A stretch of DNA of 64,000 nucleotides from an archaeon (GCA_024278375.1 JAJRTH010000092.1:6193-70192), one strand, 5' to 3'; positions 13,905 through 49,760 are shown, counted from the stretch's first letter. Notes: generated by a model from the letters alone, not told the origin. Numbers and translations are program-made.

Positions 13905-14339
13905 ATGGAAGAACCAGTAGAAGTAAAAGTGAGCGACCTGACACCCAATCACAACAGGATAAACCTGAAGGTGAAGGTCGTCAAGATAGGCGAGACGAAA
14001 GAGATACCCTCGAGATACGGGCCACCGAAAAAGGTTACGGAGGCCGTCGTTGGGGACGATACCGGAGTGGTCACAATGTCCCTCTGGGAGGACCAGATAA
14101 ACGATATAAATGAGGGAGATACCCTGTTCGTAAGTAACGGATACATCTCTCTCGTGCAGGGACACATGAGACTGAATGTTGGAAAGTACGGCTCGAAAGA
14201 GGTCATCGACGAGGATGTCGGTGAGGTGAACGAAAGCCTCGATATGAGCGAGAAAGAGTATGAGTACAACGAGTACCGGAGAAAAAGGAACAATTTCGGT
14301 GGAAGAGGCGGAAGCGGATACAACAGAAACAGATACTGA
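13905..14339 (+). CDS. OB-fold single-stranded DNA-binding protein with RGG tail
   Basis: ATG 13905 is preceded by AAGGAG, with a TATTTATA box at 13838-13845. OB-fold core plus a C-terminal FGGRGGSGYNRNRY tail. The ORF track extends to 13848. Confidence 0.7.
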   Translation: MEEPVEVKVSDLTPNHNRINLKVKVVKIGETKEIPSRYGPPKKVTEAVVGDDTGVVTMSLWEDQINDINEGDTLFVSNGYISLVQGHMRLNVGKYGSKEVIDEDVGEVNESLDMSEKEYEYNEYRRKRNNFGGRGGSGYNRNRY

Positions 14340-14358
14340 ATAAATCTGTAAAAACCCA

Positions 14359-14940
14359 TTATCTTTCATTTTTCATTTCGTTCCGTCTCCTGACAGAGAC
14401 TATAAGCATGAGAACAAGCAATGTTGCGAAGATAATCGGAACCAAAAGACTCCCGAACTCAGGAACCGGAGTCGTAGCTGTGAATATCTCGGTTTTGGAG
14501 GTATTCATCTCCGTGTCTCGTGGGTTATTAATAAAGGTTAATCCTGTATAATTTACAGTTATGTTGTAAGGCGTATAGTAAATCTTTGTAGTGCTGTTCT
14601 GCCAGTACTCGGTTAATACTATCCATCTAACATAACCATCCAAATCGGTTGAGAAATTCTTGTCATAGGTTCCGTTCTCATTATCTTTAATTCTAACCTC
14701 TGCGGCAGGAATCGGTGTTCCTTCGGAATCTTCCACATAGACATGGAGATACCAGCGAACTGTTAAATTTCCATAGCTATCGATAGTTATCTTATTTATA
14801 TCAAAACTTGAATTTGTTACTACAAAATATGAGCCTGGACTCCCGACTATCGAAAAATCATATAAATTCATATTTCTTATTGTTGTATTATATATATATG
14901 TACCCTGTAGCTGAGCTAGAAATTCCAAAATTTCCACCAT
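14359..14940 (-). CDS. beta-helix surface protein paralog 1, C-terminal fragment with PEF-CTERM-like anchor
   Basis: Ends ..TATTPVPEFGSLLVPIIFATLLVLMLIVSVRRRN. It has no signal peptide of its own. Its frame continues the upstream fragment across the (TA)n tract. Confidence 0.7.
   Translation of the reverse strand: MVEILEFLAQLQGTYIYNTTIRNMNLYDFSIVGSPGSYFVVTNSSFDINKITIDSYGNLTVRWYLHVYVEDSEGTPIPAAEVRIKDNENGTYDKNFSTDLDGYVRWIVLTEYWQNSTTKIYYTPYNITVNYTGLTFINNPRDTEMNTSKTEIFTATTPVPEFGSLLVPIIFATLLVLMLIVSVRRRNEMKNER
14462..14769 (-). repeat. conserved C-terminal module, copy 1 (about 0.3 kb direct repeat with 16745-17052)
   Basis: The nucleotide and protein alignment with copy 2 is clearly tighter than in the N-terminal halves (TVRWYLHVYVEDSEGTPIPAA..). 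Confidence 0.8.
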
Positions 14941-15175
14941 CCAATGTTACGTTTATCAATGTCGGAGTGGAATACAATGAATATATGGCATCCTCTGTGC
15001 TCCTTAGAACCACGGTATTTTTTATTAATGGAGCACTGTTGTATTCCACCTGAATTCCATCTGCCGTATTGCTCCCCCTCCCGGTATCTGTTATCATATT
15101 ATTGACTATAATAGGATTGCTAGGTCTAGCTGGAGAGTTCCCCCCCACCAGTAACCCATATACCATATGTACCAC
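14888..15175 (-). CDS. beta-helix surface protein paralog 1, middle fragment
   Basis: 95-aa ORF collinear with residues ..PSNPKIVGNVIAH..TLINVTIDG.. of paralog 2. It is bounded by a G7 run and a (TA)5 tract. Confidence 0.65.
   Translation of the reverse strand: MVHMVYGLLVGGNSPARPSNPIIVNNMITDTGRGSNTADGIQVEYNSAPLIKNTVVLRSTEDAIYSLYSTPTLINVTLDGGNFGISSSATGYIYI
14889..14899. repeat. (TA)5T dinucleotide tract at a frame break
   Basis: tatatatatat read directly from the sequence. It is homologous to the tract at 17163-17171. Confidence 0.95.
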
Positions 15176-15866
15176 TGTATGTTATCCAGTTGTTCTCTAT
15201 GGTTCCATTTGACCAGTATCCGGCATAGATTCCAACATCATTCCAAGTTATCGTGTTGTTGGATACGGTGGCATCCGAGCCATAGAGAACGATGCCGTCG
15301 TTGTTGTAGGATATAAGGTTGTGGTCTATGGTAGCGTTGTCGGTTTCGATGTAAAGACCGTAATATGCGGGATTCGGTGCAGGCGGGTCTATCACCCATA
15401 CGCCGATGCCTCCACCGCATCTGTGCAATTCAGAGTTCCTCATCTCGAAGACAGAGCCATCCCTTGCCAGAAATATGAACCTGTAGGAGGTGTTGTTCGT
15501 GGTTATCACAGAGGCATCATAGCTTGTGGTATTGTCGTTATCCCAGTCCAGAATGTGCATCTCTCCTCCAGCCCAGACATCTATCTTCCATTTCTTATCT
15601 GATGAGCAGTTCAGCTTGAGGGTTACATTCCTTAAAATAAGATTTCCTCCAGACTTTATGGTTATGTTTCCATCCGCTATTATCGTGCAGTTCCTGTATT
15701 CTCTGGTATCCGTGACATTCCATGTACCCTGAAAATAGACCGTACCTCCCTCGGGTGGCTGTATCGGGTCGTTCTCAGCCTTGACATTCCCAGAGATGAG
15801 CAGAAACATAGCTATGAAGAGCAGAAACATGACGAGCATTCCCATGAACAACCTGAAGCTTTTCAT
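15126..15866 (-). CDS. beta-helix surface protein paralog 1, N-terminal fragment (signal peptide + PbH1-like repeats)
   Basis: MKSFRLFMGMLVMFLLF.. signal sequence. Repeats NNTITWNDVGIY and IENNWITYSG. The frame ends in the G7 run at 15140-15146. Confidence 0.7.
   Translation of the reverse strand: MKSFRLFMGMLVMFLLFIAMFLLISGNVKAENDPIQPPEGGTVYFQGTWNVTDTREYRNCTIIADGNITIKSGGNLILRNVTLKLNCSSDKKWKIDVWAGGEMHILDWDNDNTTSYDASVITTNNTSYRFIFLARDGSVFEMRNSELHRCGGGIGVWVIDPPAPNPAYYGLYIETDNATIDHNLISYNNDGIVLYGSDATVSNNTITWNDVGIYAGYWSNGTIENNWITYSGTYGIWVTGGGELSS
15140..15146. repeat. C7/G7 homopolymer at a frame break
   Basis: ccccccc on the plus strand. Removing one base joins ..GIWVTGGG to NSPARPSNP... Confidence 0.9.
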
Positions 15867-15908
15867 ATCCTCATCCATACATACACACATGTTAGATAAG
15901 CATTTTCC

Positions 15909-16544
15909 TCATATGTTTCCGACATTCCTTAACTCGACATAGAGCATATTCTCCTTGCCTTCAAACGCCATGAACTTGGGAAAAATGTTCTCAGGATGCT
16001 TCAAATCCTTAGGATTCAGATTAGTATCCACCAGTTCTGGCAGTTCCAGAGGATATGCACCCATATCGCTCATTATTATCGGTGGAGATGTCTCATTCGT
16101 CTCATTGCTTTCGTTTCCAGAACTCACGGGCGGAATTCCGGAAAATTTGGGTCTCTCCGGTAAAGTTATCTTGTCATTCAGAGGTTTCATCGCTTCCTTT
16201 ATCCTATCTATGTCTGGCTTCTCAAAGTGGGCGGGTTTTGGCATCTCCCTCATCGGGTCGAGAGTGATGTTGAGCTCCTTAATCATCGGAAGTGAATCAA
16301 TTGTTATCTCCTTATGCACAAAGCATTTCCCATCTGTGAAATTCAGAGAGATAACATCACCTATAGATGTATTCTCTATTTCCAGATAGTATTTTCCATC
16401 CTCGAACTCAGATACCTTTCCCGTATTTGTGTTCATGTTCTCATAGCCAACGAGAAACCAGCTTGTTGGAACTCCAAATTCATCCTCCACTGTTCCGTAA
16501 ACAGTTAGCATATCGTTGCTTCCTGTCTCTGCTGCTCCCATCAT
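15909..16544 (-). CDS. hypothetical protein between the two beta-helix paralogs
   Basis: 211-aa ORF with no signal peptide and no recognisable motif. Two hairpins lie upstream at about 16575-16625. Confidence 0.4.
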   Translation of the reverse strand: MMGAAETGSNDMLTVYGTVEDEFGVPTSWFLVGYENMNTNTGKVSEFEDGKYYLEIENTSIGDVISLNFTDGKCFVHKEITIDSLPMIKELNITLDPMREMPKPAHFEKPDIDRIKEAMKPLNDKITLPERPKFSGIPPVSSGNESNETNETSPPIIMSDMGAYPLELPELVDTNLNPKDLKHPENIFPKFMAFEGKENMLYVELRNVGNI

Positions 16545-16641
16545 TGGTATTAATGTAGATACAGCATAGTCAGGGCTATTAAGGCCGGTATGGCCTTTTT
16601 CATCATCCCGAAGGATGATTTTCCTTTATTCTCGTTTCCTT

Positions 16642-17154
16642 TCATTTTCTTTTCCTCCTTTTTTGTTTTATTTTGTTATTTTTCATAAATAAAATGATGA
16701 GAGTGATGGTGATTATTAAAGGAATAAATATCGAATCAAATTCAGGAACCGGAGTTGTAGCTGTGAAAACTTCGGTTTTGGAAACATTCATATCCGTGTC
16801 TCTCGGATTGTTGATAAAGGTTAAGTCTGAGTAATTTACAGTTATGTTATAAGGTGTGTAATAAATTATCGTATCGTTATTTCTCCAGTACTCTTTTATA
16901 ACTATCCATCTCACATAACCATTGGAATCCGTGGTGAAATTCTCGTCATAGGTTCCATTCTCGTTGTCTTTTACTCTCACATCAGCTGCCGGTATCGGTG
17001 TTCCTTCAGAATCCTCCACATAAACGTGGAGATACCAGCGGACTGTCAGGTTGCTGAAACTATTTGATATCCACACTCTGCTTTTATTGAATGTTGTATT
17101 TGCAACTATAAAGTATGAATCAGCTATTGAAAAAACAGTATTCACATTTGACAT
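16642..17154 (-). CDS. beta-helix surface protein paralog 2, C-terminal fragment with PEF-CTERM-like anchor
   Basis: Ends ..TATTPVPEFDSIFIPLIITITLIILFMKNNKIKQKRRKRK. It continues the upstream fragment across the (TA)4 tract. Confidence 0.7.
   Translation of the reverse strand: MSNVNTVFSIADSYFIVANTTFNKSRVWISNSFSNLTVRWYLHVYVEDSEGTPIPAADVRVKDNENGTYDENFTTDSNGYVRWIVIKEYWRNNDTIIYYTPYNITVNYSDLTFINNPRDTDMNVSKTEVFTATTPVPEFDSIFIPLIITITLIILFMKNNKIKQKRRKRK
16745..17052 (-). repeat. conserved C-terminal module, copy 2
   Basis: See 14462-14769. Confidence 0.8.
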
Positions 17155-18125
17155 AGAAGTATTATATATATGTATTTTGTAGAAGAGCTCGCAATCCCAT
17201 AATTCGCCCCATCTATTGTAACATTTATTAGAGTTGGTGTAGAACCGTCAGAAGAATAAACGGCATCTTCCCCAGTGCTAAGAATCTCCGTGTTTTTGAT
17301 TATGGGATTGGATGCGTATGTAATATGGATTCCGTTTCCATATCCAACTCCCAAATCCTGTCCAGTATGAGCAATCACATTCCCAACTATCTTCGGGTTG
17401 CTCGGATGAGTGTTTACATTATCCCATCCATCTACCCATATTCCGTATTTGTAATTCCATGTTATCCAGTTATTTTCTATGGTTGCGTTGGACCACCATG
17501 TCGCCATTATTCCCGTGTCATCATTCCATGTTATCGTGTTGTTGGATACGGTGGCATCCGAGCCATAGAGGACGATGCCGTAAGCATTGCGAGAGATAAG
17601 ATTATGGTCGATTATAGCATTATCCGTCTGAATATACAACCCTGACCAAGACACTATTGCAGGAGTTATTCCGCACCTGTGCAGTTCGGAATTCCTCATC
17701 TCGAAATAGCTCCCATCATCCACCCAGAACAGATATGGATAATTTGAATCCGCAGCGGTCATGTTGCTCGCATCTCCTGTTGTCAGATTGTTATTGTCCA
17801 GATCGAGTATATACATAGAGGCTCCTGATTGAACCTCTATGATGTATTGACCTGCAGATGTGCAGTTCATTATCAGGGTTACATTCCTGAAAGTCAGGGT
17901 TGCATTATTGGAAACCGTTAGATTTCCACTCAAAATGATGGTCTCATTGCTTCTTATAGTATCGGTTGTTATGTCCCAGTCCCCGTTTATGTAGATTTTC
18001 GGCTGAGGATAGGTTATTGACCTCGTGCCCTCGGCATAAAAATTCTCTGATAATGAATTCATAGGTATGACTGCAAAAACCAGCAAGACGACGATTATTC
18101 CCATGATTTTTCCTAGCTTCTTCAT
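17142..18125 (-). CDS. beta-helix surface protein paralog 2, N-terminal fragment (signal peptide + PbH1-like repeats)
   Basis: MKKLGKIMGIIVVLLVF.. signal sequence and NNTITWNDDTGI / IENNWITWNY repeats. The 21-nt start region ATGTATGGATGAGGATATGAA is shared with paralog 1. Confidence 0.7.
   Translation of the reverse strand: MKKLGKIMGIIVVLLVFAVIPMNSLSENFYAEGTRSITYPQPKIYINGDWDITTDTIRSNETIILSGNLTVSNNATLTFRNVTLIMNCTSAGQYIIEVQSGASMYILDLDNNNLTTGDASNMTAADSNYPYLFWVDDGSYFEMRNSELHRCGITPAIVSWSGLYIQTDNAIIDHNLISRNAYGIVLYGSDATVSNNTITWNDDTGIMATWWSNATIENNWITWNYKYGIWVDGWDNVNTHPSNPKIVGNVIAHTGQDLGVGYGNGIHITYASNPIIKNTEILSTGEDAVYSSDGSTPTLINVTIDGANYGIASSSTKYIYIILLCQM
17163..17171. repeat. (TA)4T dinucleotide tract at a frame break
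   Basis: tatatatat read directly. Deleting one TA unit fuses ..SSSTKYIY to NTSMSNVNTVF... Confidence 0.95.
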
Positions 18126-18196
18126 ATCCTCATCCATACATATGCATGCCATGGATAAAGTTTTTGCCCGCAAAAAGGAAAAGGGTCTCGAAGAAC

Positions 18197-20530
18197 TCAT
18201 TTCCTCCTTTTCGCCCATATCACCAGAAATGTCGGCAGTATGAATACCGAGAGCAGGAAGCTGAACAGTATCGATATCGTGGATATCTCCCCGAACTGTC
18301 TCAGCGGAGGCATGGAAGACAGCATAAGGACTCCGAACCCGCCCATCGTCGTTGCGGCGGCACTGAATATGGCACTCCCCGTATGCCTGACAGCGGTCCT
18401 GACCGCCTCTTCGGGAGAGGAGCCGTCAAGTTCTTCCAGGAATCGGTGGGTCAGATGTATCGAATATGTTATTCCGAGCCCTATGGTGAGGGCAGTAATT
18501 GTAACGGTCATCATGTTGAAACCAAGCCCGACCAGATACATCATGCCCATGGACCACAGCAGCGCTATGGCCACCGGAAGGGTGGTTATCAGCCCTATTG
18601 CAAGGACCCTTCTGAGATAATAGAATACCGCCGTCAGGATTATGAGAGATATCGCTAGGGTGATCATCAGAGAATTCCACTGGCTGTTCTGCAGGCTCGT
18701 TGTTATGGTGTAGATGAGTATGGAACCTCCCGTGACCACCGTCTCGTATCCCGCATCTCGGAGCGGTTTCGCATCCTCTCTCAGTTCCGAAAGAAGCACA
18801 GCGTGTTCCGAATTGGATTCTGATGTGCCCTTTATGCGCATAAGAGCGCTCTCATACGTGCCGTTTTCCCTGTACAGCACATACTTCGTCCTTTCGTCGT
18901 GTTCGAAGAGCCAGTCATAGATGCTTGCGATATTGGAATCCGGAAGTCCGTCCCCGTCGCTATCTGCAGAAGCGCCAAGCGCCCTGAAACTCGCGTTTTT
19001 TCCGTAAATGTCCCGTATCACCGTTGTTATGTCCTGCGATTCCGAGAGAGAGACATACCTGTCATCCGCCATCTCCGCTCTCGTGTTCTCTATCGCCCTT
19101 AGGAGTTCGGGAGAGGTCAGATCGCCCTTTATTAGGATGTAACTGTCCTCCATAGCCGAACTCTGGAAGTGCTCCATGATATATGTCATGGTTTCTGCGG
19201 AAATGGAGTTTTCGGGAAGGAAATCGCTCTCACTGAAGTTCGTATCCAGGTTTGTGGCACCGTAGAGGGATGCGAGAGATATAACAATCACTATACCCAG
19301 CACCTTGTATGGATGGTGTTCTGCGCCTATCGCACCCACGGCCAGTATCCTGTTGAGCACCAGCAATCCGCTTTCCGTCCTCTTACCTCTCTCTTTTATC
19401 ACTTCCAGACCCTTCTTTTCCCGTCTCCCGTCAATGATGACCTTGGCGGAGGGTATGAAGGTGAGATTGATGATAAAGGCCGAAAATATGCCGAAGGCAT
19501 TCATAATACCGAAGTCTCTGAGCGGAGGGATCGGTGATGATATGTTGGAGAGAAAGGAAACTATGGTGGTCACAGTGGTCAGTATGAGGGCCATGCCAAG
19601 GTGCGCTTCCATGGAGATCGTCGCTTTTTTCACATCCTTTCCGGCCCTTATCTCCTCCCTGTATCTCATTATGGTATGTATTGCGTAGTCTATCCCCAGA
19701 CCGACTATCAGGACGGCAACGGTTGTGCTTATCTGATTGAAGGTCATGTTCGCCATCACACCGAAGCCGTAGGTCCATATTATAGCCATGAAGAGCCCAA
19801 TAAGACCCAGCAAAGTATCAAGAAAGGACCTGAAAATGACCAGAAGAATCAATATGACCAGGATGAACACCACCGGAAGTAGAACCTTCGATGTCTCGTC
19901 CATAGTCTCTTTCATGTCTTCGTCCATCAGTCTCAGGCTCATGACAAGGTATTCGCCGCCACCATCAAAGGAATCGGCAATGCCCTTGATTTTCAGGTGA
20001 ATTCTCACCATCCTGTCCGAGAACTCCTTGTCGCCCTCACCCGCCTTTTGCGTACCGTTTAGATTTATAATCATAAGAGAAGCGCTAGCCTCGGGCACGG
20101 CAGGGTCAAAGTCCTCGGAAATCATCTTCTTCATCTGTTCCTTTGCCGCCGATATTGACGAGGGGTCCATCGAGGCGATCATGGTTTCGAGGTTCGACCC
20201 CATTTCGGAAAAATTCTGTGACATGGAGGAAAACGTCGCATATGCTTCGGTGAATGTCATGTTCACGGTGGTATTTGAATATACAGGCACGGTGCCCAGG
20301 CAGTCATCGATTTTCAAGGACAGGGAAATGCTATATGCGGATAGGTCGGAACTCAGTTTGGACAGGGCCGCAGCGGAACTCTGAAACTCCCTTCCAAGTT
20401 CCATGAACTCTGCGCTATCCATGGGAGTGCCGTATCTGAGTATGTTGTCTATCTCTTCCAGACTCATGTTTTCCAGATGGGATATCTTATCGTCCGCGGA
20501 CATTTCCGAGGAAAACGCCGGAGGGCTCAT
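18197..20530 (-). CDS. RND-superfamily (MMPL/HAE3-like) exporter, TM2-TM12 portion
   Basis: 777 aa with two 5-6-helix bundles separated by a large loop and a GLGIDYAIH motif. It lacks TM1, which lies in the upstream same-frame ORF. Confidence 0.75.
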   Translation of the reverse strand: MSPPAFSSEMSADDKISHLENMSLEEIDNILRYGTPMDSAEFMELGREFQSSAAALSKLSSDLSAYSISLSLKIDDCLGTVPVYSNTTVNMTFTEAYATFSSMSQNFSEMGSNLETMIASMDPSSISAAKEQMKKMISEDFDPAVPEASASLMIINLNGTQKAGEGDKEFSDRMVRIHLKIKGIADSFDGGGEYLVMSLRLMDEDMKETMDETSKVLLPVVFILVILILLVIFRSFLDTLLGLIGLFMAIIWTYGFGVMANMTFNQISTTVAVLIVGLGIDYAIHTIMRYREEIRAGKDVKKATISMEAHLGMALILTTVTTIVSFLSNISSPIPPLRDFGIMNAFGIFSAFIINLTFIPSAKVIIDGRREKKGLEVIKERGKRTESGLLVLNRILAVGAIGAEHHPYKVLGIVIVISLASLYGATNLDTNFSESDFLPENSISAETMTYIMEHFQSSAMEDSYILIKGDLTSPELLRAIENTRAEMADDRYVSLSESQDITTVIRDIYGKNASFRALGASADSDGDGLPDSNIASIYDWLFEHDERTKYVLYRENGTYESALMRIKGTSESNSEHAVLLSELREDAKPLRDAGYETVVTGGSILIYTITTSLQNSQWNSLMITLAISLIILTAVFYYLRRVLAIGLITTLPVAIALLWSMGMMYLVGLGFNMMTVTITALTIGLGITYSIHLTHRFLEELDGSSPEEAVRTAVRHTGSAIFSAAATTMGGFGVLMLSSMPPLRQFGEISTISILFSFLLSVFILPTFLVIWAKRRK

Positions 20531-34694: not shown

Positions 34695-36343
34695 AGAAGG
34701 TCTAGCATTCTCGCGAGGGCTCTTTCTCCCCTGTAATCCGGGAGCATTATCGGAGACCTTCTTTCGGGTTTTATTTTTGCCTTCTTCAGCTCGTTTTCGT
34801 AGAGTGCCACATGTTTCAGGCTCAGCTTCTTCGGTTTTCCGCGCTTCTTGGCCCACTTTGCAGCGCTTATTCCAGCTCTCCTTCCGAAAACATTGAAGTC
34901 CAGCAGGGAATTCCCCATCAATCGGTTCTTTCCGTGTACGCCGCCCTCGACCTCTCCGCCGGCAAACAGACCGGGAACAGAGGTCTGAGCACTCACATCT
35001 ATCTCGACACCGCCGTTCTGATAGTGTAATGTGGGAAATACGAGTATCGGGTCCTTTGTCATGTCTATTCCGAACCTCTTATACATGCGGTACATGGCAT
35101 CCAGATCTTTTTCTATGGTTCCTTCGCCGCTTATCTCCTCTATCATGGGCGAATCCAGCCATATTCCCATCATACCCGTGGGGGTCTCGACACCTTTGTT
35201 CCTGCCGTAGCATTCCCTTATGAAAGCAGCGGCCTCGACATCTCTGGGCTCCATCGGGAACACGAAGAGTTCTCCGTCCCTGTTCACGGGCTGTGCGCCC
35301 ATCCCGCGGACCTTTTCGGTTATCAGCAGGCCAACAATCTGCTCGGGATATGCGGCACCCGTCGGATGATACTGCACCGTATCCAGGTCCCTCAGCTTCG
35401 CTCCGGCCCTGTAGGCCATCACTAAGCCATCGGCAGTTGCACCGTAGTGATTCGTCGTGGGGAATCCCTGTATGTGCAGCCTGCCAAATCCGCCTGTTGC
35501 CAGAACGGTTGCCTTTGCCCTCACAACATAATACTGTTCCGTTTCCATGTTGAACAGCACGGCTCCGGCAACATTCCCTTCATCATCTTTCAACAGCTCT
35601 ATTGCAGGACTGAACTCCAGCACGGGTATCTCCCTGTTCCTGAACTCATCCCTCAGAACCCTCATTATCTCCATTCCTGTGTAGTCTTTGGCGGAATGCA
35701 GTCTGAATCTGGACGTGCCTCCTCCTGCTCTCTCGACATAGCTTCCGTCGGGATTTCTGTCATACTGCACGCCCAGCTCCTCGTGCCATTTCAGTATGAA
35801 AGGCGCATCTTTCACGAGCGCTTCCACGAGTTCGGGTTTGTTCGCGAAATGCCCTCCGCCTATTACATCAAGGTAATGTAAGGCAGGACTGTCCTCCTCT
35901 CTGTCGGCAGCCTGTATGCCGCCCTGTGCCATCATGGAGTTGGCATCGCCGTGTCTGAGCTTGGTTACCATGAGGATGTTCTCCGCAGAGATTCCGTTGT
36001 CATTGGCCCACAGTGCGGCTACGGTGCCGGCACCACCACCTCCTATTATGAGGAGGTCAACATCGTAATCTATGGTTTTGAGGTCAATGTCTTTCTCGCT
36101 TATCAGAGGATATGCTTCGAGGAGGTCAACAACTTCGTGAGGCGCAAGATCTCCCTTGTTCGGTCCGACCTTAACAGGTCTTTTTTTATCGGGCTTGTAA
36201 TCCGGGTGATACTTGTTCAGCACATCCTCTCTCGCATCCATGCTCATCGCTTCGAAGCTTTTTTTCATCCTTTCAGTCCTAGTCTTCTCCACCTTCTCTA
36301 TGGATTCCCTCATTTCTTCCGTATAACCGCCTATTAGTTTCAC
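34691..36343 (-). CDS. SdhA/FrdA-like FAD flavoprotein (fumarate-reductase family) with N-terminal extension
   Basis: 550 aa: LLIIGGGGAGTVAAL, MAQGGIQAA, QYHPTG, GLFAGGEV. Confidence 0.7.
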   Translation of the reverse strand: MKLIGGYTEEMRESIEKVEKTRTERMKKSFEAMSMDAREDVLNKYHPDYKPDKKRPVKVGPNKGDLAPHEVVDLLEAYPLISEKDIDLKTIDYDVDLLIIGGGGAGTVAALWANDNGISAENILMVTKLRHGDANSMMAQGGIQAADREEDSPALHYLDVIGGGHFANKPELVEALVKDAPFILKWHEELGVQYDRNPDGSYVERAGGGTSRFRLHSAKDYTGMEIMRVLRDEFRNREIPVLEFSPAIELLKDDEGNVAGAVLFNMETEQYYVVRAKATVLATGGFGRLHIQGFPTTNHYGATADGLVMAYRAGAKLRDLDTVQYHPTGAAYPEQIVGLLITEKVRGMGAQPVNRDGELFVFPMEPRDVEAAAFIRECYGRNKGVETPTGMMGIWLDSPMIEEISGEGTIEKDLDAMYRMYKRFGIDMTKDPILVFPTLHYQNGGVEIDVSAQTSVPGLFAGGEVEGGVHGKNRLMGNSLLDFNVFGRRAGISAAKWAKKRGKPKKLSLKHVALYENELKKAKIKPERRSPIMLPDYRGERALARMLDLL

Positions 36344-37050
36344 TGGGTCACCTCCCCTCTCTGTATCTTTTCGATGGTTCTCGAGGTATATTCCTCCTTG
36401 AGCTTTTCCATGCTCATCTTCTTGAGTTTTTCGATTTCCTTGTCGAACTTGCCCGCATCTATTTCCTCAATCCTTTTGAGCAGATGCTCCGGAATCTGCA
36501 GATAGTACTTTCCGTATATCCTTCTCGCGAGCTGAGCTACGTGGTAATGTGTTATTTCCGCGGGACACCTTGCAGCACATAGACCGCACTGGATGCAGTC
36601 GAACGAGAGCTTAGAGACCTCACCGTAATCTCCTCTTATCGCGGCCTGAATGTAGTACATCACATCGAGCTCCTGCGGGCAAGATTTCGTGCAGGTATTG
36701 CAGGAAACACACCTGTTTATCTCTGGGTAATACTCGGAGAGAACGTTCTTTTCCGGATTAATCATGTCAATATCGTATTCCTTCCTGTTCGCAGGGACAA
36801 AAGGAAGCTGTGCGAGATACATGCCATCCTCGGCCGTCGTCTGACATGCCAGAGCGGTCTGGAACTTGTACTCTCCTTTATTTCTGTATACGGTCGCACA
36901 GGCACCGCAGAAACCTGCCCTGCATCCCGAACCTCTTATGAATCTGTATCCCACATATTCCATAGCCTTCATTATGGTGAGGCCGAACGGGACCTCGTAT
37001 GCTTTTCCCATTATATACACAGTTATCATTTTTTCTTTGTTTTCAGACAT
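36340..37050 (-). CDS. SdhB/FrdB-like iron-sulfur protein (2Fe-2S + 2x 4Fe-4S motifs)
   Basis: CRAGFCGAC, CVSCNTCTKSCP and CIQCGLCAARCP. 4-nt overlap with the flavoprotein gene. Confidence 0.7.
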   Translation of the reverse strand: MSENKEKMITVYIMGKAYEVPFGLTIMKAMEYVGYRFIRGSGCRAGFCGACATVYRNKGEYKFQTALACQTTAEDGMYLAQLPFVPANRKEYDIDMINPEKNVLSEYYPEINRCVSCNTCTKSCPQELDVMYYIQAAIRGDYGEVSKLSFDCIQCGLCAARCPAEITHYHVAQLARRIYGKYYLQIPEHLLKRIEEIDAGKFDKEIEKLKKMSMEKLKEEYTSRTIEKIQRGEVTQ

Positions 37051-37052
37051 TT

Positions 37053-37931
37053 TTAACCCTCCAGAAGCCCGCGCTCCTCAAGAAGAGGCCTCGGGTCTAT
37101 ATGGTTTTCATCTAAACCGGCCTTATCCTCGAGTCCCATGGCAAGAGCCATGAGCTGTGTGAAATAGAGGACTGGCATCTCGATGAATCCGTGATATTTC
37201 TTTTTAACCTCCATCTGCCTGTCTTCGAGATTGAAATCACAGAGAGGACATGAAAGGATGATAGCATCTCCGCCAGCTTCTCTTGCGGATTCCACTATCT
37301 TTCTGGTGCGCTCCAAGACGGCATCCTTGTTCGTTATGGTCTGGTATGAGCCGCAGCATTCGGTCTTGTACTCTGTGTCTATTATATCCGCCCCCATGGC
37401 CTTCATTATTTCTTCCATTATTCTGGGATCACGCGGGTCGTCAATGGAAACATCCTCCGGCCGGACCAGGGTGCATCCGTAATAAGGGACGAGTTTCAGA
37501 CCTGTGAGCGGCTTTCTGACCTTCTTGCCGATCTCCTTGATTCCTACTTCCCCGAGTATCTGCAGCAGATGCAGGGGTTCCACCCCGCCTCCGTAGTCCT
37601 CCTCCGTATCCATGAACTCGTTTATTGTCTTCAATTTCTCCGGATCGTTTATTACTAGATTGTTTGCCTGCCTAAGCGTGTTATAGCACATGGAGCAGAA
37701 GGATACCACCCTCTTCTCCCCCATCTCCGATTCCACGACCACCAGGTTCCTTATCGGAGCAAGCTGATGCATGAGATCGTCCGTTGCAAGGGAGTACACG
37801 GTCCCGCAGCAGTTCCATCTCGGCATCTCGATGAATTCTATTCCGAGTTCCTTCCCGACGGCGAGACCCGACATTTCGAAGTTCTTTGCGGTCGCTTTGA
37901 GGGTACATCCCGGAAAATACGGTATTTTCAT
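37053..37931 (-). CDS. hdrB: heterodisulfide reductase subunit B-like (CCG domains)
   Basis: 292 aa with two CCG-type Cys clusters (PRWNCCGT, TECCGSY, PLCD). Confidence 0.8.
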   Translation of the reverse strand: MKIPYFPGCTLKATAKNFEMSGLAVGKELGIEFIEMPRWNCCGTVYSLATDDLMHQLAPIRNLVVVESEMGEKRVVSFCSMCYNTLRQANNLVINDPEKLKTINEFMDTEEDYGGGVEPLHLLQILGEVGIKEIGKKVRKPLTGLKLVPYYGCTLVRPEDVSIDDPRDPRIMEEIMKAMGADIIDTEYKTECCGSYQTITNKDAVLERTRKIVESAREAGGDAIILSCPLCDFNLEDRQMEVKKKYHGFIEMPVLYFTQLMALAMGLEDKAGLDENHIDPRPLLEERGLLEG

Positions 37932-37935
37932 CCAT

Positions 37936-38343
37936 TCACCCCGTCAGTTTCCTCATAGCCGACACGAGCGCTATCGGCGGCAGTTCTTCGACATCATCTT
38001 CCGCAATCGACTCTATGCGCAAAACATCGATGTTTTTCCTTAGTATGTGGAGCCTGAGAGCTTCCATCACAGAGGCTATGTCTATACCTTTCGGGCACTC
38101 CACCGTGCAGTTAAAACACTCTGCGCATATCCAGGGCGTGTTGCCCTCGAGTATCTTTTCCGTGGCGCCTATCTGTATGAACTTCATAACCTGATTCGGC
38201 AGGTAATCCATATCGTCCGCCATAGGGCATGAGGACGAGCATTTCCCGCACTGATAGCATAGCATTACAGGTTGTCCGCTTATTTCCTCTACCTCTTTCA
38301 TCAAAGCCAGATTCTTGTCATTGTATCCTATTCTCAATTCCAT
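37936..38343 (-). CDS. hdrC: heterodisulfide reductase subunit C-like (2x 4Fe-4S)
   Basis: CYQCGKCSSSCP and CAECFNCTVECP. Confidence 0.8.
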   Translation of the reverse strand: MELRIGYNDKNLALMKEVEEISGQPVMLCYQCGKCSSSCPMADDMDYLPNQVMKFIQIGATEKILEGNTPWICAECFNCTVECPKGIDIASVMEALRLHILRKNIDVLRIESIAEDDVEELPPIALVSAMRKLTG

Positions 38344-38789
38344 CCCTCCATTATATTCTCGGCCATCTCGGCCGCCTCTTCGATCCCTTTTTCCACTTCC
38401 GGGGAGGGTTTTTCCGTGAATTCTGTGGGTGGAAGGATCTCTATTCCTATTATTCTGAGCTCTGGAAGGCGGAGACCGGATTTTTCCGCCAGTTCAAGGG
38501 CCTGGGAGATGCTCACGTCATGGATTGTGGAGCCGTGCCCTTTATTCGAGAGAGTATCCTTCTCTATGAGCCTCACGGTCCCGGGGCTCTCTCCGATTAT
38601 GGCATCCACGATAACCGCTCTTTCGTAATCCATCAGTTCTTCCAGGAGCCTCATTCCGCCGACATACGATTCCTTAATCTCAAAATCTTTCGGGAATTCC
38701 TTTCCTTTCTCTTTCAGTTTCCTCACGGCCAGTATGCCCGCGCTGTCATCACCGAGTATCGGATTACCCAGACCTATTATCACATTCAA
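38334..38789 (-). CDS. NiFe-hydrogenase maturation endopeptidase
   Basis: 151 aa with IIGLGNPILGDDSAG and DAI..G..PG. Overlaps the end of mvhA. Confidence 0.8.
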   Translation of the reverse strand: MNVIIGLGNPILGDDSAGILAVRKLKEKGKEFPKDFEIKESYVGGMRLLEELMDYERAVIVDAIIGESPGTVRLIEKDTLSNKGHGSTIHDVSISQALELAEKSGLRLPELRIIGIEILPPTEFTEKPSPEVEKGIEEAAEMAENIMEGWN

Positions 38790-40242
38790 GTCTCCTCAGC
38801 TCCTTTATCTTTCTTCCTCTGTGGTCTATTATCTCCACTTCCATCGGCATGGTTCCGGGAAGCGTGTGCGTTGCACATGCGAGACAGGGGTCATAGGCTC
38901 TGAAAGCCATCTCTATGGTGTTCAGTATTCCATCATTTACCTTACCTTTCTTTATGACGCTCTTCGCAGCCTTTCTCACGCTCATACATATGCCACCGTT
39001 GTTGTGCGTCGTGGCCACTATTATGTTGACCTTCTCGGTGATTCCCTCTGGATTTGCGAAGTAATGATGTATGAGAACTCCTCTCGGTGCCTCCACACAT
39101 CCTACGCCTTCTCCGGGCACACCTATCTCCGCCCTGATATCTCTGTTGGTTATGCTTCTGTCCTTCACGAGTTGGAGTCCGTGCTCGGCCGCATAGAGGG
39201 TCTCTATTAGCCTTGTCCAGTGGTATGCCATGGTATGGTGCACCGGAGAACCTCCGAAAAACTCATAGAATTCTTTGAACTCTTCATTGGCCACCGGCGT
39301 GGTGAGACCTTCCGCTACATTCATCCTCGCAAGCGGCCCCACTCTGTATATTCCCGAATCCTTTCCGTCCTTAACTCCGTTCCATCCGACCTTTTTCAGG
39401 TACGGGAATTTTATGAAGGTCCAGGGTTCGACATGCTCCGCTATGTGCTCGAGGTATTCCGAGGGGTGGAATTTGGCGAACTCGTTGCCGTCGGGGTCGA
39501 TGACCCTCAGGTCTCCGTCGTAGAGGTTCAGCATGTTGTTCTTGTCCACGGTTCCCATGTAGTAGGTCCTGTGGATATATCCCTCGGAAAGTATGAGGTC
39601 CTTGTAGGCGGGGACTATCTTATCTTTGAGAAGAGCCAGGGATTCCTTGACGAACTCAAGGGTCTCCTCCATCTTCTTCTCCATCTCCTGTCTCTCTTCA
39701 TCCGTTATTCCCTTCGAGACTCCTCCAGGAAGGCCGAATACAGAGTGTATCGCCTTTCCTCCTATAATCTCCTGGATGTCGGTCATATTCTTCATGTTCC
39801 TGAGAACTTTCTTAACCAGGTCCTCTCCGACTTTGTCTATCATTCCCAGGACATTCCTGCTAGCCCTGGGAGCATCCGGCCCCATCACGAAATCCGGTGC
39901 AGCAAGGACATAGAAGTGGAGCAGATGGTCATGGACAGTGAAGGCATCGTAGTAAAGCTCCCTTATCTTCCTGGCCGTTTCTGTGGGCTTCGTTTTGAAC
40001 ACCGCATCAATGGCTTTTGTGGATGCCATCACGTGGGCTCCCGGGCAGACACCGCATATTCTCGGCGTGATTCTGGCAAGCTCTTCCACCGCCCTTCCGA
40101 CACAGAAGCGCTCGAATCCCTTGAATTCAACGGTCTGGAAATAGGCATCCTCCACATTTCCCGTTTCATCCAGGAATATGGATATCTTAGCCTCACCCTC
40201 CAGCCTGGTAACCGGATTTATCGTTATCTCCTTGGTATTCAT
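38764..40242 (-). CDS. mvhA: [NiFe] hydrogenase large subunit, Mvh/F420-non-reducing type
   Basis: N-terminal RICGVCPGAH and C-terminal DPCLACATH ligand motifs plus a cleavable C-terminal extension. ATG 40242 follows AAGGAGG. The ORF track extends to 40281. Confidence 0.85.
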   Translation of the reverse strand: MNTKEITINPVTRLEGEAKISIFLDETGNVEDAYFQTVEFKGFERFCVGRAVEELARITPRICGVCPGAHVMASTKAIDAVFKTKPTETARKIRELYYDAFTVHDHLLHFYVLAAPDFVMGPDAPRASRNVLGMIDKVGEDLVKKVLRNMKNMTDIQEIIGGKAIHSVFGLPGGVSKGITDEERQEMEKKMEETLEFVKESLALLKDKIVPAYKDLILSEGYIHRTYYMGTVDKNNMLNLYDGDLRVIDPDGNEFAKFHPSEYLEHIAEHVEPWTFIKFPYLKKVGWNGVKDGKDSGIYRVGPLARMNVAEGLTTPVANEEFKEFYEFFGGSPVHHTMAYHWTRLIETLYAAEHGLQLVKDRSITNRDIRAEIGVPGEGVGCVEAPRGVLIHHYFANPEGITEKVNIIVATTHNNGGICMSVRKAAKSVIKKGKVNDGILNTIEMAFRAYDPCLACATHTLPGTMPMEVEIIDHRGRKIKELRRLECDNRSG

Positions 40243-40277
40243 CTTAAACCTCCTTTCGGATGATTCCTGCCGGACCA

Positions 40278-41249
40278 TCATTCATCGTCCAACCTCCTGT
40301 TGATTATCGCAGAGGGAAGGGTGAACCTGTAAAAGGTTCCCGTCGGGTCCGCTATTCTCTCGAGAAGTTCACGCAGTCCTTCTTCTCCGAGTTCAACCTC
40401 TTTGTCCGCAGCAAGAAGCGATGTTATGGCCGAAAGCATCTTGGAACCCTGGTCCTTTATTCCGGGAGGGGGGCCAAAACATCCCCTGCACGGCATATTG
40501 GCATTTATGCAACGGGTCCCGCATCCAGATCTGGTGGCAGGTCCCATGCAGATTATGCCCTGCGCCAGGAAACAAAGATTCGGGTCAGCCTCCTTCTCAT
40601 GGGGCCTGTAGAATCCGTCTATGACCATTTTCTCGGGCTTCTCCCTCTTACACTCGTCGCAGAGCGCTCTGGTTCCGGCTATGACTGTTCCCTTGGGAGG
40701 CAGCTCCTCACCCTTGGAATAGGCCACGGCCACGCCTATGAGGTCTCTTATCTGGGATTCCACAGGAGGACATCCGGGAACATAATAGTCCATGTCCACG
40801 AGATTGTCATGGGAATGGCCGAGATTGTAGAGTTTTGGCAGGGTGAGGATCTTTCCGTCCACCTTCGACCTCTCAGAAGGCCATTCTCCTTTGTCGGTGC
40901 TTATGCTCTCGTATGCCGTTCTCATCACCTCATCCCGATCTGGACTCAGATTGACAAGGCCTGGAATGCCGCCGAAACAGGCGCACGAGCCGAAAGCGAC
41001 CATGACCTTCGATTTTTTCCTGAGTAATTTCAGTATTTCCTCCTGTTCGGATGTCCTTATGGAGCCGTGGCTCAGGGTTATATCTATGTAGTCGATGGCC
41101 TCCAGATCCTCGTGTTTTGGGTCCGCTCCGGTCGGCCAGTACACTATCTCTGCGATTTTCGCAAGATCAGCGAAATCCTCACCTATGTCGGCGATTGCCA
41201 CATCGCATCCGGAACATGAGCCGAGCGGTGCAATTGCAATCCTTATCAT
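40278..41249 (-). CDS. mvhG: [NiFe] hydrogenase small subunit, Mvh type
   Basis: GSCSGCD, FGSCACFGG, and distal Cys clusters (CDECKR, CMGPATRSGCG..C). Confidence 0.8.
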   Translation of the reverse strand: MIRIAIAPLGSCSGCDVAIADIGEDFADLAKIAEIVYWPTGADPKHEDLEAIDYIDITLSHGSIRTSEQEEILKLLRKKSKVMVAFGSCACFGGIPGLVNLSPDRDEVMRTAYESISTDKGEWPSERSKVDGKILTLPKLYNLGHSHDNLVDMDYYVPGCPPVESQIRDLIGVAVAYSKGEELPPKGTVIAGTRALCDECKREKPEKMVIDGFYRPHEKEADPNLCFLAQGIICMGPATRSGCGTRCINANMPCRGCFGPPPGIKDQGSKMLSAITSLLAADKEVELGEEGLRELLERIADPTGTFYRFTLPSAIINRRLDDE

Positions 41250-41674
41250 CTCTCACCCTCCTTCATTCTCGGAACAGGGCCGAGTTTTCTGACTTCATCT
41301 ATGAAGTCGTCCATGACCTCCGCAAACTTCTTTCCCTCGCTTGCAGAGACCCACTCGAGCCTCAATCTTCTGGGGTTTATTCCCATCTGCTCAAGCATTC
41401 TCTCCATGACCACCTTTCTCTTGTACGTCTTGAAGTTTCCGTTCACATAGTGGCAGTCAGTCGGCGTATGGCACCCGCCTATGAAAACACCGTCCGCACC
41501 CTCTCTGAATGCCTCGAGAACGAACTGCGGGTCCACCCTTCCGGAGCACATGACCCTTATGGGCACTACATTTGGCGGATATTTCAGCCTGCTGACGCCC
41601 GCAAGGTCGGCACCGCTGTATGCACACCAGTTACACAGAAACGCAACAATCCTGGGTTCAAAACTCTTCCTCAC
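41246..41674 (-). CDS. mvhD: MvhD-like hydrogenase iron-sulfur subunit
   Basis: 142 aa: IVAFLCNWCAYSGADLAG..MCSGRV..GC..DCHY. Confidence 0.85.
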   Translation of the reverse strand: MRKSFEPRIVAFLCNWCAYSGADLAGVSRLKYPPNVVPIRVMCSGRVDPQFVLEAFREGADGVFIGGCHTPTDCHYVNGNFKTYKRKVVMERMLEQMGINPRRLRLEWVSASEGKKFAEVMDDFIDEVRKLGPVPRMKEGER

Positions 41675-45150: not shown

Positions 45151-45257
45151 GCCTGGAAGAATATAATCTGCATATTTAATCTTTATCTCGATGTGGTAAA
45201 TGTGGTCCCCTATTCAGGCCAGAGAGATGCACAGAACCTCTGCCACCCGGAAGGATG

Positions 45258-45332
45258 CGGACCCGGGGGGATTCGAACCCCCGTCCCCGGCTCCGAAGGC
45301 CGGAAGGATGATCCAGGCTACCCTACAGGCCC
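45258..45332 (-). tRNA. tRNA-Arg (anticodon UCG)
   Basis: Hand-folded cloverleaf: acceptor GGGCCTG/CGGGTCC, anticodon stem CCGGC/GCCGG with loop CTTCGGA, T-arm GGGGG-TTCGAAT-CCCCC, discriminator G. CCA is not encoded. Confidence 0.8.
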
Positions 45333-48380: not shown

Positions 48381-49760
48381 ATGAGAACCCTTTCCACATC
48401 GCTATCGCTAGCGTTGATAGCATTCACACTATCGAGCATCTTCATACCTTCGGGTAGCGGAGCCTCCATCCAGAGTTTTGATCTGCATATGGTCGGAGAG
48501 GCCGCTTTAAAGGATTCTGAGGGCAGATACAGAATGGTCGCAGGGATATGGCACCAATTTGATATCTATCTGGACACGAGTGCGGATGTCGTGGAGATAG
48601 AGATGCGGTACGGAGATTTTACGGACTGGGACACCACCAACCACTACCGTTGGCTTTATTCGGCGGGCAACTGGAGCGATGCGGAATATGGAATATATAT
48701 CGAACAGGATAAATGCGACAGAACTGGGACCCTTTACTCCTTTATAGTGGGTGTGGACGGAAAGGTTAATTACGGTTTGTGGAACCTGACGGTAAGGGCG
48801 GACGGAGAGGAGATATATGCATCGGAGATATATGTGGAAAAAGCTGTCGTAGGCGCTGATTTTCACTCGGCGGATTTTCTGCTGTGGGCGGTACCATTTA
48901 CCGCAGGAACGATAGACTCTGCGGATAAAATGCAGTATATTAGGATAGTGAATGGGGGCAATACACCGTTGTATTATAATATCACCTTCTCGGCCTTTTC
49001 AGATAGGATAAACCTCACGGGAGATGACGAGGTAATACACGTCGGTGGAGAGACCGTTCGGTACATCAGATTCGGGACGGATTCATGGAGCCCCAGAGTC
49101 ATAAAAATAAAGGGCAGGATAAATGTAGGGGCTATGTACAGGATACCTACGGCCAGTACAGCCACGCTTATAACAGGGGTCGGCTCAACATTTCCCTTAA
49201 CGATATATATCGGACATTCCGGATATGAGATACTGGAGAAAGACGGCCTGACAATCCAGATAAAGAGACGCATATCTTTGGACTATGGTGCGGAATCCGA
49301 GCTGAAAATCTTTTTAACAGGAAACGGTACTGCTATGGTGAACATACGCGGAGAAAACTGTACGATAGAGGAGATTATTTACAGGGGAGAAAAGAGAAAT
49401 CCTCCTTTTCCGGTGGTCCTGTCCGAGGAATTCGAGACAAACATAACGATAAGAATACGAGCGGACACCCCCGATGTCATAGCGAAGGTAATATACCTGA
49501 TAGAATATGGGGGAAAGGACAACATATACTCCACTGATGTAGAGGTCGGGCCAGCACCTCCTCCGGAGCCTGTACCACCGCAGGAGCCAGACAAAACCTT
49601 GGCTGCGGCCTTCATCATAGGAGCAGCGGCATTAGCTACTGCATACATAATGTTGACACATAAAAAGGCGGCGGATGAAGTGAAAAGGAAGGGCATTGAG
49701 GATGCGAGCGAGAAAAGACCAAGACGCACAAAAAAGAAGAGGGGAGGAGATAAGAGATGA
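48381..49760 (+). CDS. secreted protein with C-terminal TM anchor and basic tail
   Basis: Signal peptide. A P-rich stalk (PAPPPEPVPPQEPD) is followed by the helix AAAFIIGAAALATAYIML and then KKAADEVKRKG..KKKRGGDKR. Confidence 0.6.
   Translation: MRTLSTSLSLALIAFTLSSIFIPSGSGASIQSFDLHMVGEAALKDSEGRYRMVAGIWHQFDIYLDTSADVVEIEMRYGDFTDWDTTNHYRWLYSAGNWSDAEYGIYIEQDKCDRTGTLYSFIVGVDGKVNYGLWNLTVRADGEEIYASEIYVEKAVVGADFHSADFLLWAVPFTAGTIDSADKMQYIRIVNGGNTPLYYNITFSAFSDRINLTGDDEVIHVGGETVRYIRFGTDSWSPRVIKIKGRINVGAMYRIPTASTATLITGVGSTFPLTIYIGHSGYEILEKDGLTIQIKRRISLDYGAESELKIFLTGNGTAMVNIRGENCTIEEIIYRGEKRNPPFPVVLSEEFETNITIRIRADTPDVIAKVIYLIEYGGKDNIYSTDVEVGPAPPPEPVPPQEPDKTLAAAFIIGAAALATAYIMLTHKKAADEVKRKGIEDASEKRPRRTKKKRGGDKR

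Follow-up and report, generated by a model that had tools for sequence, protein, structure and literature searches.

Does a short tandem repeat inside an archaeal surface-protein gene act as a switch, or is it the weakest point of a gene that is on its way to being lost? The question is raised by two tandem, paralogous genes on the minus strand of a 64,000-nucleotide stretch of archaeal DNA (GCA_024278375.1, JAJRTH010000092.1:6193-70192; hereafter the window, whose coordinates are used below unless another locus is named). Both genes encode a predicted beta-helix surface protein, and in both the reading frame is broken at the same alternating TA tract, which an earlier note, made from the sequence alone, had taken as a candidate for slipped-strand phase variation. 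With moderate confidence, we favour a reading in which this tract is a contingency-like slippage hotspot that gives rise to ON/OFF polymorphism, the alleles of the window being OFF and partly decaying.

Copy 1 extends from 15878 or 15866 to 14359 and copy 2 from 18137 or 18125 to 16642, and the open reading frames (ORFs) together with Pfam matches bear out that each combines a signal peptide, a beta-helix and a tail made of VPEF, a transmembrane (TM) helix and basic residues. The two paralogs of this one genome carry tracts of different length: copy 1 has (TA)5T at 14889..14899 (plus strand TATATATATAT), one unit below the in-frame (TA)6, and copy 2 has (TA)4T at 17163..17171 (plus strand TATATATAT), two units below it. 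The frame changes exactly at the tract in both copies, at the positions given in the earlier note, and tblastn places the change at query residues ~318-320. These two are the only TA runs of at least 9 nt in the 64 kb window, every other being no longer than 8 nt, among them the (TA)4 runs at 48693-48700, 49203-49210 and 62296-62303. Dinucleotide-preserving shuffles gave on average 0.61 matches to TATATATAT as compared with the four overlapping matches observed at two sites, and 4 of 100 shuffles reached four. When given 3 or 6 TA units, copy 2 becomes a single ORF of 493/495 amino acids (aa), as had been claimed for either copy; copy 1 does so only when a second lesion, a run of seven G residues (G7), is also mended to G6. 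The predicted full-length junction peptides of the 6-unit form are ...GYIYIYNTTIR... and ...KYIYIYNTSMSNVNTVFSIADSYFIVANTTFNK..., and the truncated C-termini predicted for the frameshifted copies are ...YIYIILLCQM and ...SSSATGYIYI.

The tract is found both in and out of frame among relatives. A protein search returned many full-length homologs of 480-512 aa, which read YIYIYN, YIYIIN, YIYVYN and similar at the junction. The 6-unit in-frame form predicted by the earlier note is present in L001 (WALJ01) and L119 (JGI 3300022188), where YIYIYN is coded TAC ATA TAT ATA TAT AAT, a pure (AT)6A, while the 3-unit ON form (YIYN) was seen in none of the intact homologs compared. L009 has (AT)5A, in frame with a shifted tract start, and interrupted tracts, also in frame, occur in L005 (YIYIYN coded TAC ATC TAT ATT TAC AAC) and in L114, the closest relative of copy 2 (TAC ATC TAT ATA ATA AAT). 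Four further assemblies are broken at the tract by whole units, L032 (GCA_054002815.1), L113 (JGI 3300053005) and L116 (ENA ERZ27248007) by minus 1 unit and L115 (ENA ERZ23499380) by minus 2; adding whole TA units to these genes yields one open frame each, collinear with the intact homologs. Across the two window copies, L001, L119 and these four relatives, the number of units sets the frame, the lengths being 6 (in frame), 5, 4 or equivalents. All six broken alleles are off by whole units, which fits slipped-strand mispairing, and the proposal that the break point is a site of TA-unit slippage stood up well, the window copies being the 6-unit form minus one and minus two units. We infer slippage as the mutational mechanism.

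Purity and length of the run go together with breakage. Pure runs of at least 9 nt are out of frame in six cases and in frame in three, while none of the 21 runs that are interrupted or no longer than 8 nt is broken there (Fisher p = 1.4e-4, for alleles that are not phylogenetically independent). The ratio of broken to intact long tracts, about 2:1, is the expectation for a freely slipping dinucleotide tract. Of eight frameshifts found in genes of the family, six fall in this tract of at most 13 nt within a gene of ~1.5 kb; the remaining two are the G7 lesion of copy 1 and, in L117/L118, a 2-nt deletion outside any repeat. Likewise, 10 of the 21 TA runs of at least 9 nt in 824 kb of fetched archaeal loci lie at this junction. 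The gene with the 2-nt deletion, coding for P0042 (L117 ~390-400, L118 ~50-60), is in frame at its interrupted tract; the deletion lies upstream, away from repeats, and is present in two assemblies (expected AAC TAT GGA ATA TGG, observed AAC TGG AAT ATG G). One more gene (P0051, L120) is cut by a contig end and uninformative. The database contains no other assembly of this species, the closest proteins being 79% (copy 2) and 76% (C-terminal module of copy 1) identical, and a scan of JGI metagenomes gave few close relatives, most matches being distant beta-helix proteins.

How old the breaks are can be judged from copy 1, L115 and L032, which form one orthogroup (a single 90% protein cluster) and are all out of frame. 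Upstream of the tract they share 77-83% nucleotide identity, and their synonymous sites are saturated (proportion of synonymous differences, pS, 0.59-0.73). Downstream of the tract, the ratio of nonsynonymous to synonymous change (dN/dS) is 0.05-0.09, as low as upstream, a sign of strong purifying selection on this part of the frame. Copy 1 has shifted one way and L115 the other, giving two frames among the three orthologs. The synonymous saturation, the low downstream dN/dS and the differing frames together rule out one old dead allele inherited by all three. The earlier note had named such an allele, common to relatives, as the mark of plain pseudogenes; the comparison of ortholog tracts found none and found the downstream frame conserved. 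As judged from these alignments, the breaks are each recent and independent, or else the locus is in frame much of the time; either way the tract mutates far faster than the rest of the gene.

Two other lesions of the cluster had escaped the earlier note. The second frameshift of copy 1 is a C7 run on the plus strand at 15140..15146 (G7 in the gene), where G6 would restore ...TGGGNSPARPSNP...; orthologs code the same Gly-rich loop at this position without a G run, so that the run of copy 1 is lineage-specific and likely the product of a G6-to-G7 slip. Between the two copies lies a partner gene for a small secreted protein (15909..16645, minus), which is split into a 31-aa signal-peptide fragment (16645 to 16550) and a 211-aa ORF in another frame (16544 to 15909). 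This break is located inside the signal peptide at a non-repeat site and is probably a 1-nt loss that turned ATGGCT into ATGCT. The partner gene is conserved, standing intact beside the beta-helix gene in L114, L006, L007 and L100, and its ATG overlaps the stop codon of copy 2 (ATGA), which suggests translational coupling of the partner gene to copy 2. In total, the cluster holds four frameshifts across three adjacent genes. Its GC content (0.37-0.43, window 14000-18000) is lower than that of the flanking genes (0.46-0.51), a contrast characteristic of surface-protein islands that are variable or were acquired.

These observations can be joined in a mechanism that begins with the protein. The tract spells out a Tyr-Ile-Tyr-Ile-Tyr beta-strand, for which the use of ATA and TAT yields a pure (TA)6, and in this genome ATA accounts for 67% of Ile codons and TAT for 52% of Tyr codons. 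A pure (TA)6 would offer a substrate for slipped-strand mispairing in replication, and the loss of one or two units would shift the frame about two thirds through the gene. The predicted OFF product keeps the signal peptide and most of the beta-helix and loses the last rungs, an immunoglobulin-like (Ig-like) stalk domain and the VPEF-TM anchor, and such a truncated product may be released or non-functional. The early stop in copy 2 could in addition lower expression of the coupled partner gene. Breakage of the tract has arisen separately in many lineages of the family, making it a contingency-like ON/OFF hotspot at the level of populations and lineages. In the genome of the window both paralogs are OFF, copy 1 by one unit and copy 2 by two, and we read this as a state entered a while ago in which decay is setting in; the cluster looks durably off and not freely toggling, and neither the G7 frameshift of copy 1 nor the non-repeat frameshift of the partner gene looks readily reversible.

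A stricter version of the hotspot reading would have reversible, repeat-driven phase variation, in which (TA)n toggles a glycosylated beta-helix protein between an anchor-tailed form and a truncated or absent form. The gene type, a predicted surface-exposed glycoprotein, is one that suits a switch. If so, the host might be a thermophilic Thermoplasmata archaeon of vents that evades viruses or remodels its surface in this way, with the paralogs set independently like the phasotypes of bacteria. Beyond slippage, it would call for reversibility and for some adaptive value, such as escape from viruses whose receptor is this protein, and we regard this stricter version as rather unlikely.

Several observations weigh against a contingency-like hotspot. 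Codon usage alone would give a pure tract in ~12% of YIYIY codings, roughly one in eight, so that the tract needs no selection for mutability to arise and such selection is not demonstrated. Four to six units are at or below the usual length for phase-variable dinucleotide repeats in bacteria. All six OFF alleles are contractions from 6 units or the equivalent, and among the alleles compared neither a 7-unit nor a 3-unit ON form occurs, nor has any evidently re-expanded. The extra frameshifts in copy 1 (G7) and the partner gene (non-repeat) fit one-way decay at this locus. Lastly, large ORFs of related contigs carry TA runs of 9-11 nt that are in frame (L013, L065, three in L070, L079), and the high breakage at this junction must therefore also depend on loss of the protein being tolerated or selected. 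The in-frame runs are located at L070 2735-4132 (all three in one 1090-aa ORF), L013 2740, L065 1211 and L079 1750, and may be further candidate slippage sites.

The main rival is one-way pseudogenisation, in which the cluster is dispensable in these lineages, the TA tract breaks first as its weakest point, and broken genes do not revert and go on to decay or loss. We take this possibility seriously without being inclined to it. The four frameshifts of the window cluster, with one at a non-repeat site and G7 adding to the TA break of copy 1, speak for it, as does the L117/L118 homolog, which is broken by a deletion away from repeats. Contractions lower further mutability, codon bias explains the tract, the tracts are short, and the 3-unit form is missing from the intact homologs. 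On the other hand, five of the six tract-broken alleles (copy 2, L032, L113, L115 and L116, that is, all except copy 1 with its G7) carry no other disabling mutation in the available sequence, and the approximately 2:1 ratio of broken to intact alleles is that of free slippage. The downstream dN/dS of 0.05-0.09 holds even between two broken orthologs saturated at synonymous sites, which requires that every break be recent, and hence a very high rate of switching OFF or reversion.

An artefact of sequencing or assembly appears very improbable. On this view the organisms themselves carry in-frame genes, and the indels were introduced by stutter of the libraries or by errors in the consensus, in a region where strains vary and coverage is low. 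The window is a draft or metagenome-derived contig, the copy 2 fragment P0002 being placed on an NCBI contig of 74,438 bp, the relatives of the family come without exception from metagenome-assembled genomes (MAGs), simple repeats hold three of the four lesions, and the GC content of the cluster is atypical, as in a variable island. However, breaks at this tract occur in five assemblies that differ in sample and pipeline (NCBI, ENA, JGI), its length of at most 13 nt is far below assembler k-mers, and other assemblies recover the 6-unit tract in frame. An assembly-wide error is ruled out, because the rest of the window has no other split gene among ~60 ORFs, its overlapping ORF pairs being distinct complete genes, and the other G7/G8 and (TA)4 runs within window genes are in frame. 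Still fainter is the prospect of recoding, by which OFF alleles would yield full-length protein through a +/-2 nt ribosome slip on (UA)n or stutter of RNA polymerase. In its favour, every broken allele has a conserved downstream frame, a tRNA-Ile or tRNA-Tyr in the P site would re-pair perfectly after a 2-nt shift, as read from the sequence, and a stop codon directly after the tract in copy 1, L032 and L113 could pause the ribosome. Yet at least 21 homologs are in frame at the junction and several code the same peptide without a repeat, which leaves the frameshift not conserved, unlike known programmed cases; moreover, copy 1, L032, L113 and L116 would need a shift one way and copy 2 and L115 the other. 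A programmed frameshift as the principal explanation was ruled out on these grounds. Recoding would not rescue copy 1 (G7) or the partner gene either, and we know of no precedent in archaea for recoding at a dinucleotide repeat. We give the lowest probability to gene fission, in which the TATATATA run would also serve as an archaeal TATA box, with the C-terminal module made as a protein of its own. The tract does look like a TATA box, a start codon is called near the tract for the downstream ORF in every broken allele, and copy 1 has an in-frame ATG ~24 nt downstream of the tract centre. Even so, the downstream product would have no signal peptide while being rich in sequons and ending in a sorting/anchor signal, the distance from tract to start is uneven (~13 nt in copy 2, inside the tract in L032), and the intact homologs indicate that the ancestral unit was one protein with a beta-helix running across the junction.

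The slippage hotspot that we favour resembles known systems in bacteria. Contingency loci with coding repeats include sabA/hopZ (CT)n of Helicobacter pylori, lic1 (CAAT)n of Haemophilus influenzae and opa (CTCTT)n of Neisseria (PMC11868660; sabA PMC2715451). As in these, a short tandem repeat within a surface-protein ORF sets the frame, alleles differ by whole units, one third of the lengths are in frame, and paralogs differ. In contrast, the tract of the window is short (4-6 units), lies two thirds into the gene and not near its 5' end, and seems to be a by-product of YIYIY coding, and the host is an uncultured archaeon, of class Thermoplasmata by its relatives. A second parallel is inlA of Listeria monocytogenes, in which homopolymeric-tract frameshifts and premature stops give an unanchored internalin (PMC2831843). 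There, too, a slippage-prone tract is hit, the signal peptide is kept, the C-terminal anchor signal is lost, and the event recurs in independent lineages; however, inlA is a bacterial gene with a poly(A) near its 5' end and an LPXTG/sortase anchor, whereas the window genes have a TA dinucleotide tract and a putative PEF-CTERM/archaeosortase-type tail.

For archaea, a 2025 review leaves the distribution of phase variation to future work (PMC11868660), and statistical surveys that include archaeal genomes exist (PMC3315296, PMC2831843). One preprint states that contingency loci are known in archaea, citing general reviews only. We found in the literature no described archaeal gene with phase variation by simple sequence repeats, which agrees with the earlier remark that such loci are scarcely documented in archaea. 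Repeat-driven contingency loci are central to the evasion of hosts and phages in bacteria, and the present locus is a concrete archaeal candidate with a defined tract, a known in-frame length, six independently broken alleles and three intact long-tract alleles. If switching is true, bet-hedging by slipped-strand mispairing would reach into archaeal surface biology. If it is not, the locus still shows that a Tyr-Ile beta-strand can, through codon bias, become a weak point for mutation, and that surface-protein genes found split in MAGs can reflect genuine biology and not assembly error.

The two copies are laid out as follows. The upstream frame of copy 2 (17142..18137, minus; identical to database protein P0002) begins MDEDMKKLGK... 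and encodes the signal peptide together with the greater part of the right-handed beta-helix, reading past the tract to a TGA stop 15 codons on (...SSSTKYIYIILLCQM*). The downstream frame (16642..17162, minus; P0038), whose ORF as called begins with the ATG at 17154, contains the final rungs of the beta-helix, followed by an Ig-like domain (MG4/CarboxypepD_reg-like) and then by VPEF, the TM helix and the basic tail. Copy 1 is in three pieces. Its first fragment (15126..15878, or from 15866, minus; P0037) covers the signal peptide plus the first two thirds of the beta-helix and ends in ...GIWVTGGGELSS*. The second (14888..15151, minus) holds the rungs from the G run to the TA tract and ends in ...SSSATGYIYI*. 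The downstream frame (14359..14888, minus; P0040) has the same content as that of copy 2, and its longest called ORF starts at an ATG at 14940 and runs to 14359. Both copies open with MDEDMK... followed by the signal peptide, and this is probably the true N-terminus, 12 nt upstream of the start taken in the earlier note. The 5' sequence TGTATGGATGAGGATATG is identical in both copies (15864-15881 and 18123-18140), and openings like M-[DES]-E-[DN]-M occur in several homologs.

Pfam profiles assign the beta-helix of the two copies to PF13229 (Beta_helix; 62.3 and 60.7 bits, cut-off 25.9) and PF05048 (NosD; 31.4 and 37.0 bits, cut-off 23.6), and MG4/CarboxypepD_reg matches in the C-terminal third of both are sub-threshold only. 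An AlphaFold2 model of repaired copy 2 (mean predicted local distance difference test, pLDDT, 78.9; predicted template-modelling score, pTM, 0.71) is a right-handed beta-helix with an Ig-like domain at 358-455 and a C-terminal TM helix at 466-492. In the model, the TA-tract junction maps to a beta-helix strand at 318-326, with more rungs after it. Among solved structures, the top Foldseek matches of this model were phage tailspike depolymerases and alginate epimerases (AlgG/AlgE), the top 20 having 8-17% identity and TM-scores of 0.3-0.4 (normalised to query length). Such carbohydrate-active beta-helix proteins share the fold and PF13229/PF05048 with the window copies, a likeness of fold only at low identity.

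The tail had been labelled PEF-CTERM. The motif itself is visible, with VPEF, a hydrophobic stretch and an R/K-rich end readable by eye in both window tails, while the profile TIGR03024 (cut-off 23 bits) gave 16.1 bits for the tail of copy 2 and no match for that of copy 1; the tail of the orthologous L032 scores 25.8 bits, above the cut-off. The window proteins share P-E-F, the hydrophobic helix, the basic cluster, the signal peptide and many sequons (20-21 N-x-S/T per repaired protein) with PEF-CTERM archaeosortase substrates, but differ from that family in that their own tails score below threshold or are undetected. No archaeosortase was seen in the scanned part of the window ORFs, among which no dedicated search was made. 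The surface protein is probably N-glycosylated and archaeosortase-anchored.

The archaeal window also encodes FttA, Spt4, an Rpb7-like subunit and ribosomal protein S24e. The relatives of the family are Thermoplasmata-type MAGs, whose sample and isolate names point largely to hydrothermal or sediment sources. A giant relative of the two copies, an intact ORF of at least 1404 aa at 59774-63988 (minus) that reaches the window end, contains five NosD/Beta_helix stretches, Big_5 and other Ig-like domains and a CarboxypepD_reg domain, and a NosD/Beta_helix repeat protein of more than 2026 aa lies at 11182-12987 of L032, on the same contig as the broken ortholog. Beta-helix surface proteins seem to abound in these genomes. 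Rfam and tRNA scans of the window returned one tRNA-Arg only (45257-45332), which is irrelevant to the TA breaks. Equally unrelated to them is a NiFe-hydrogenase cluster at 36340-41674, with the large subunit at 38764-40281, the HycI maturation protease at 38334-38789 and a 4Fe-4S protein at 37936-38343.

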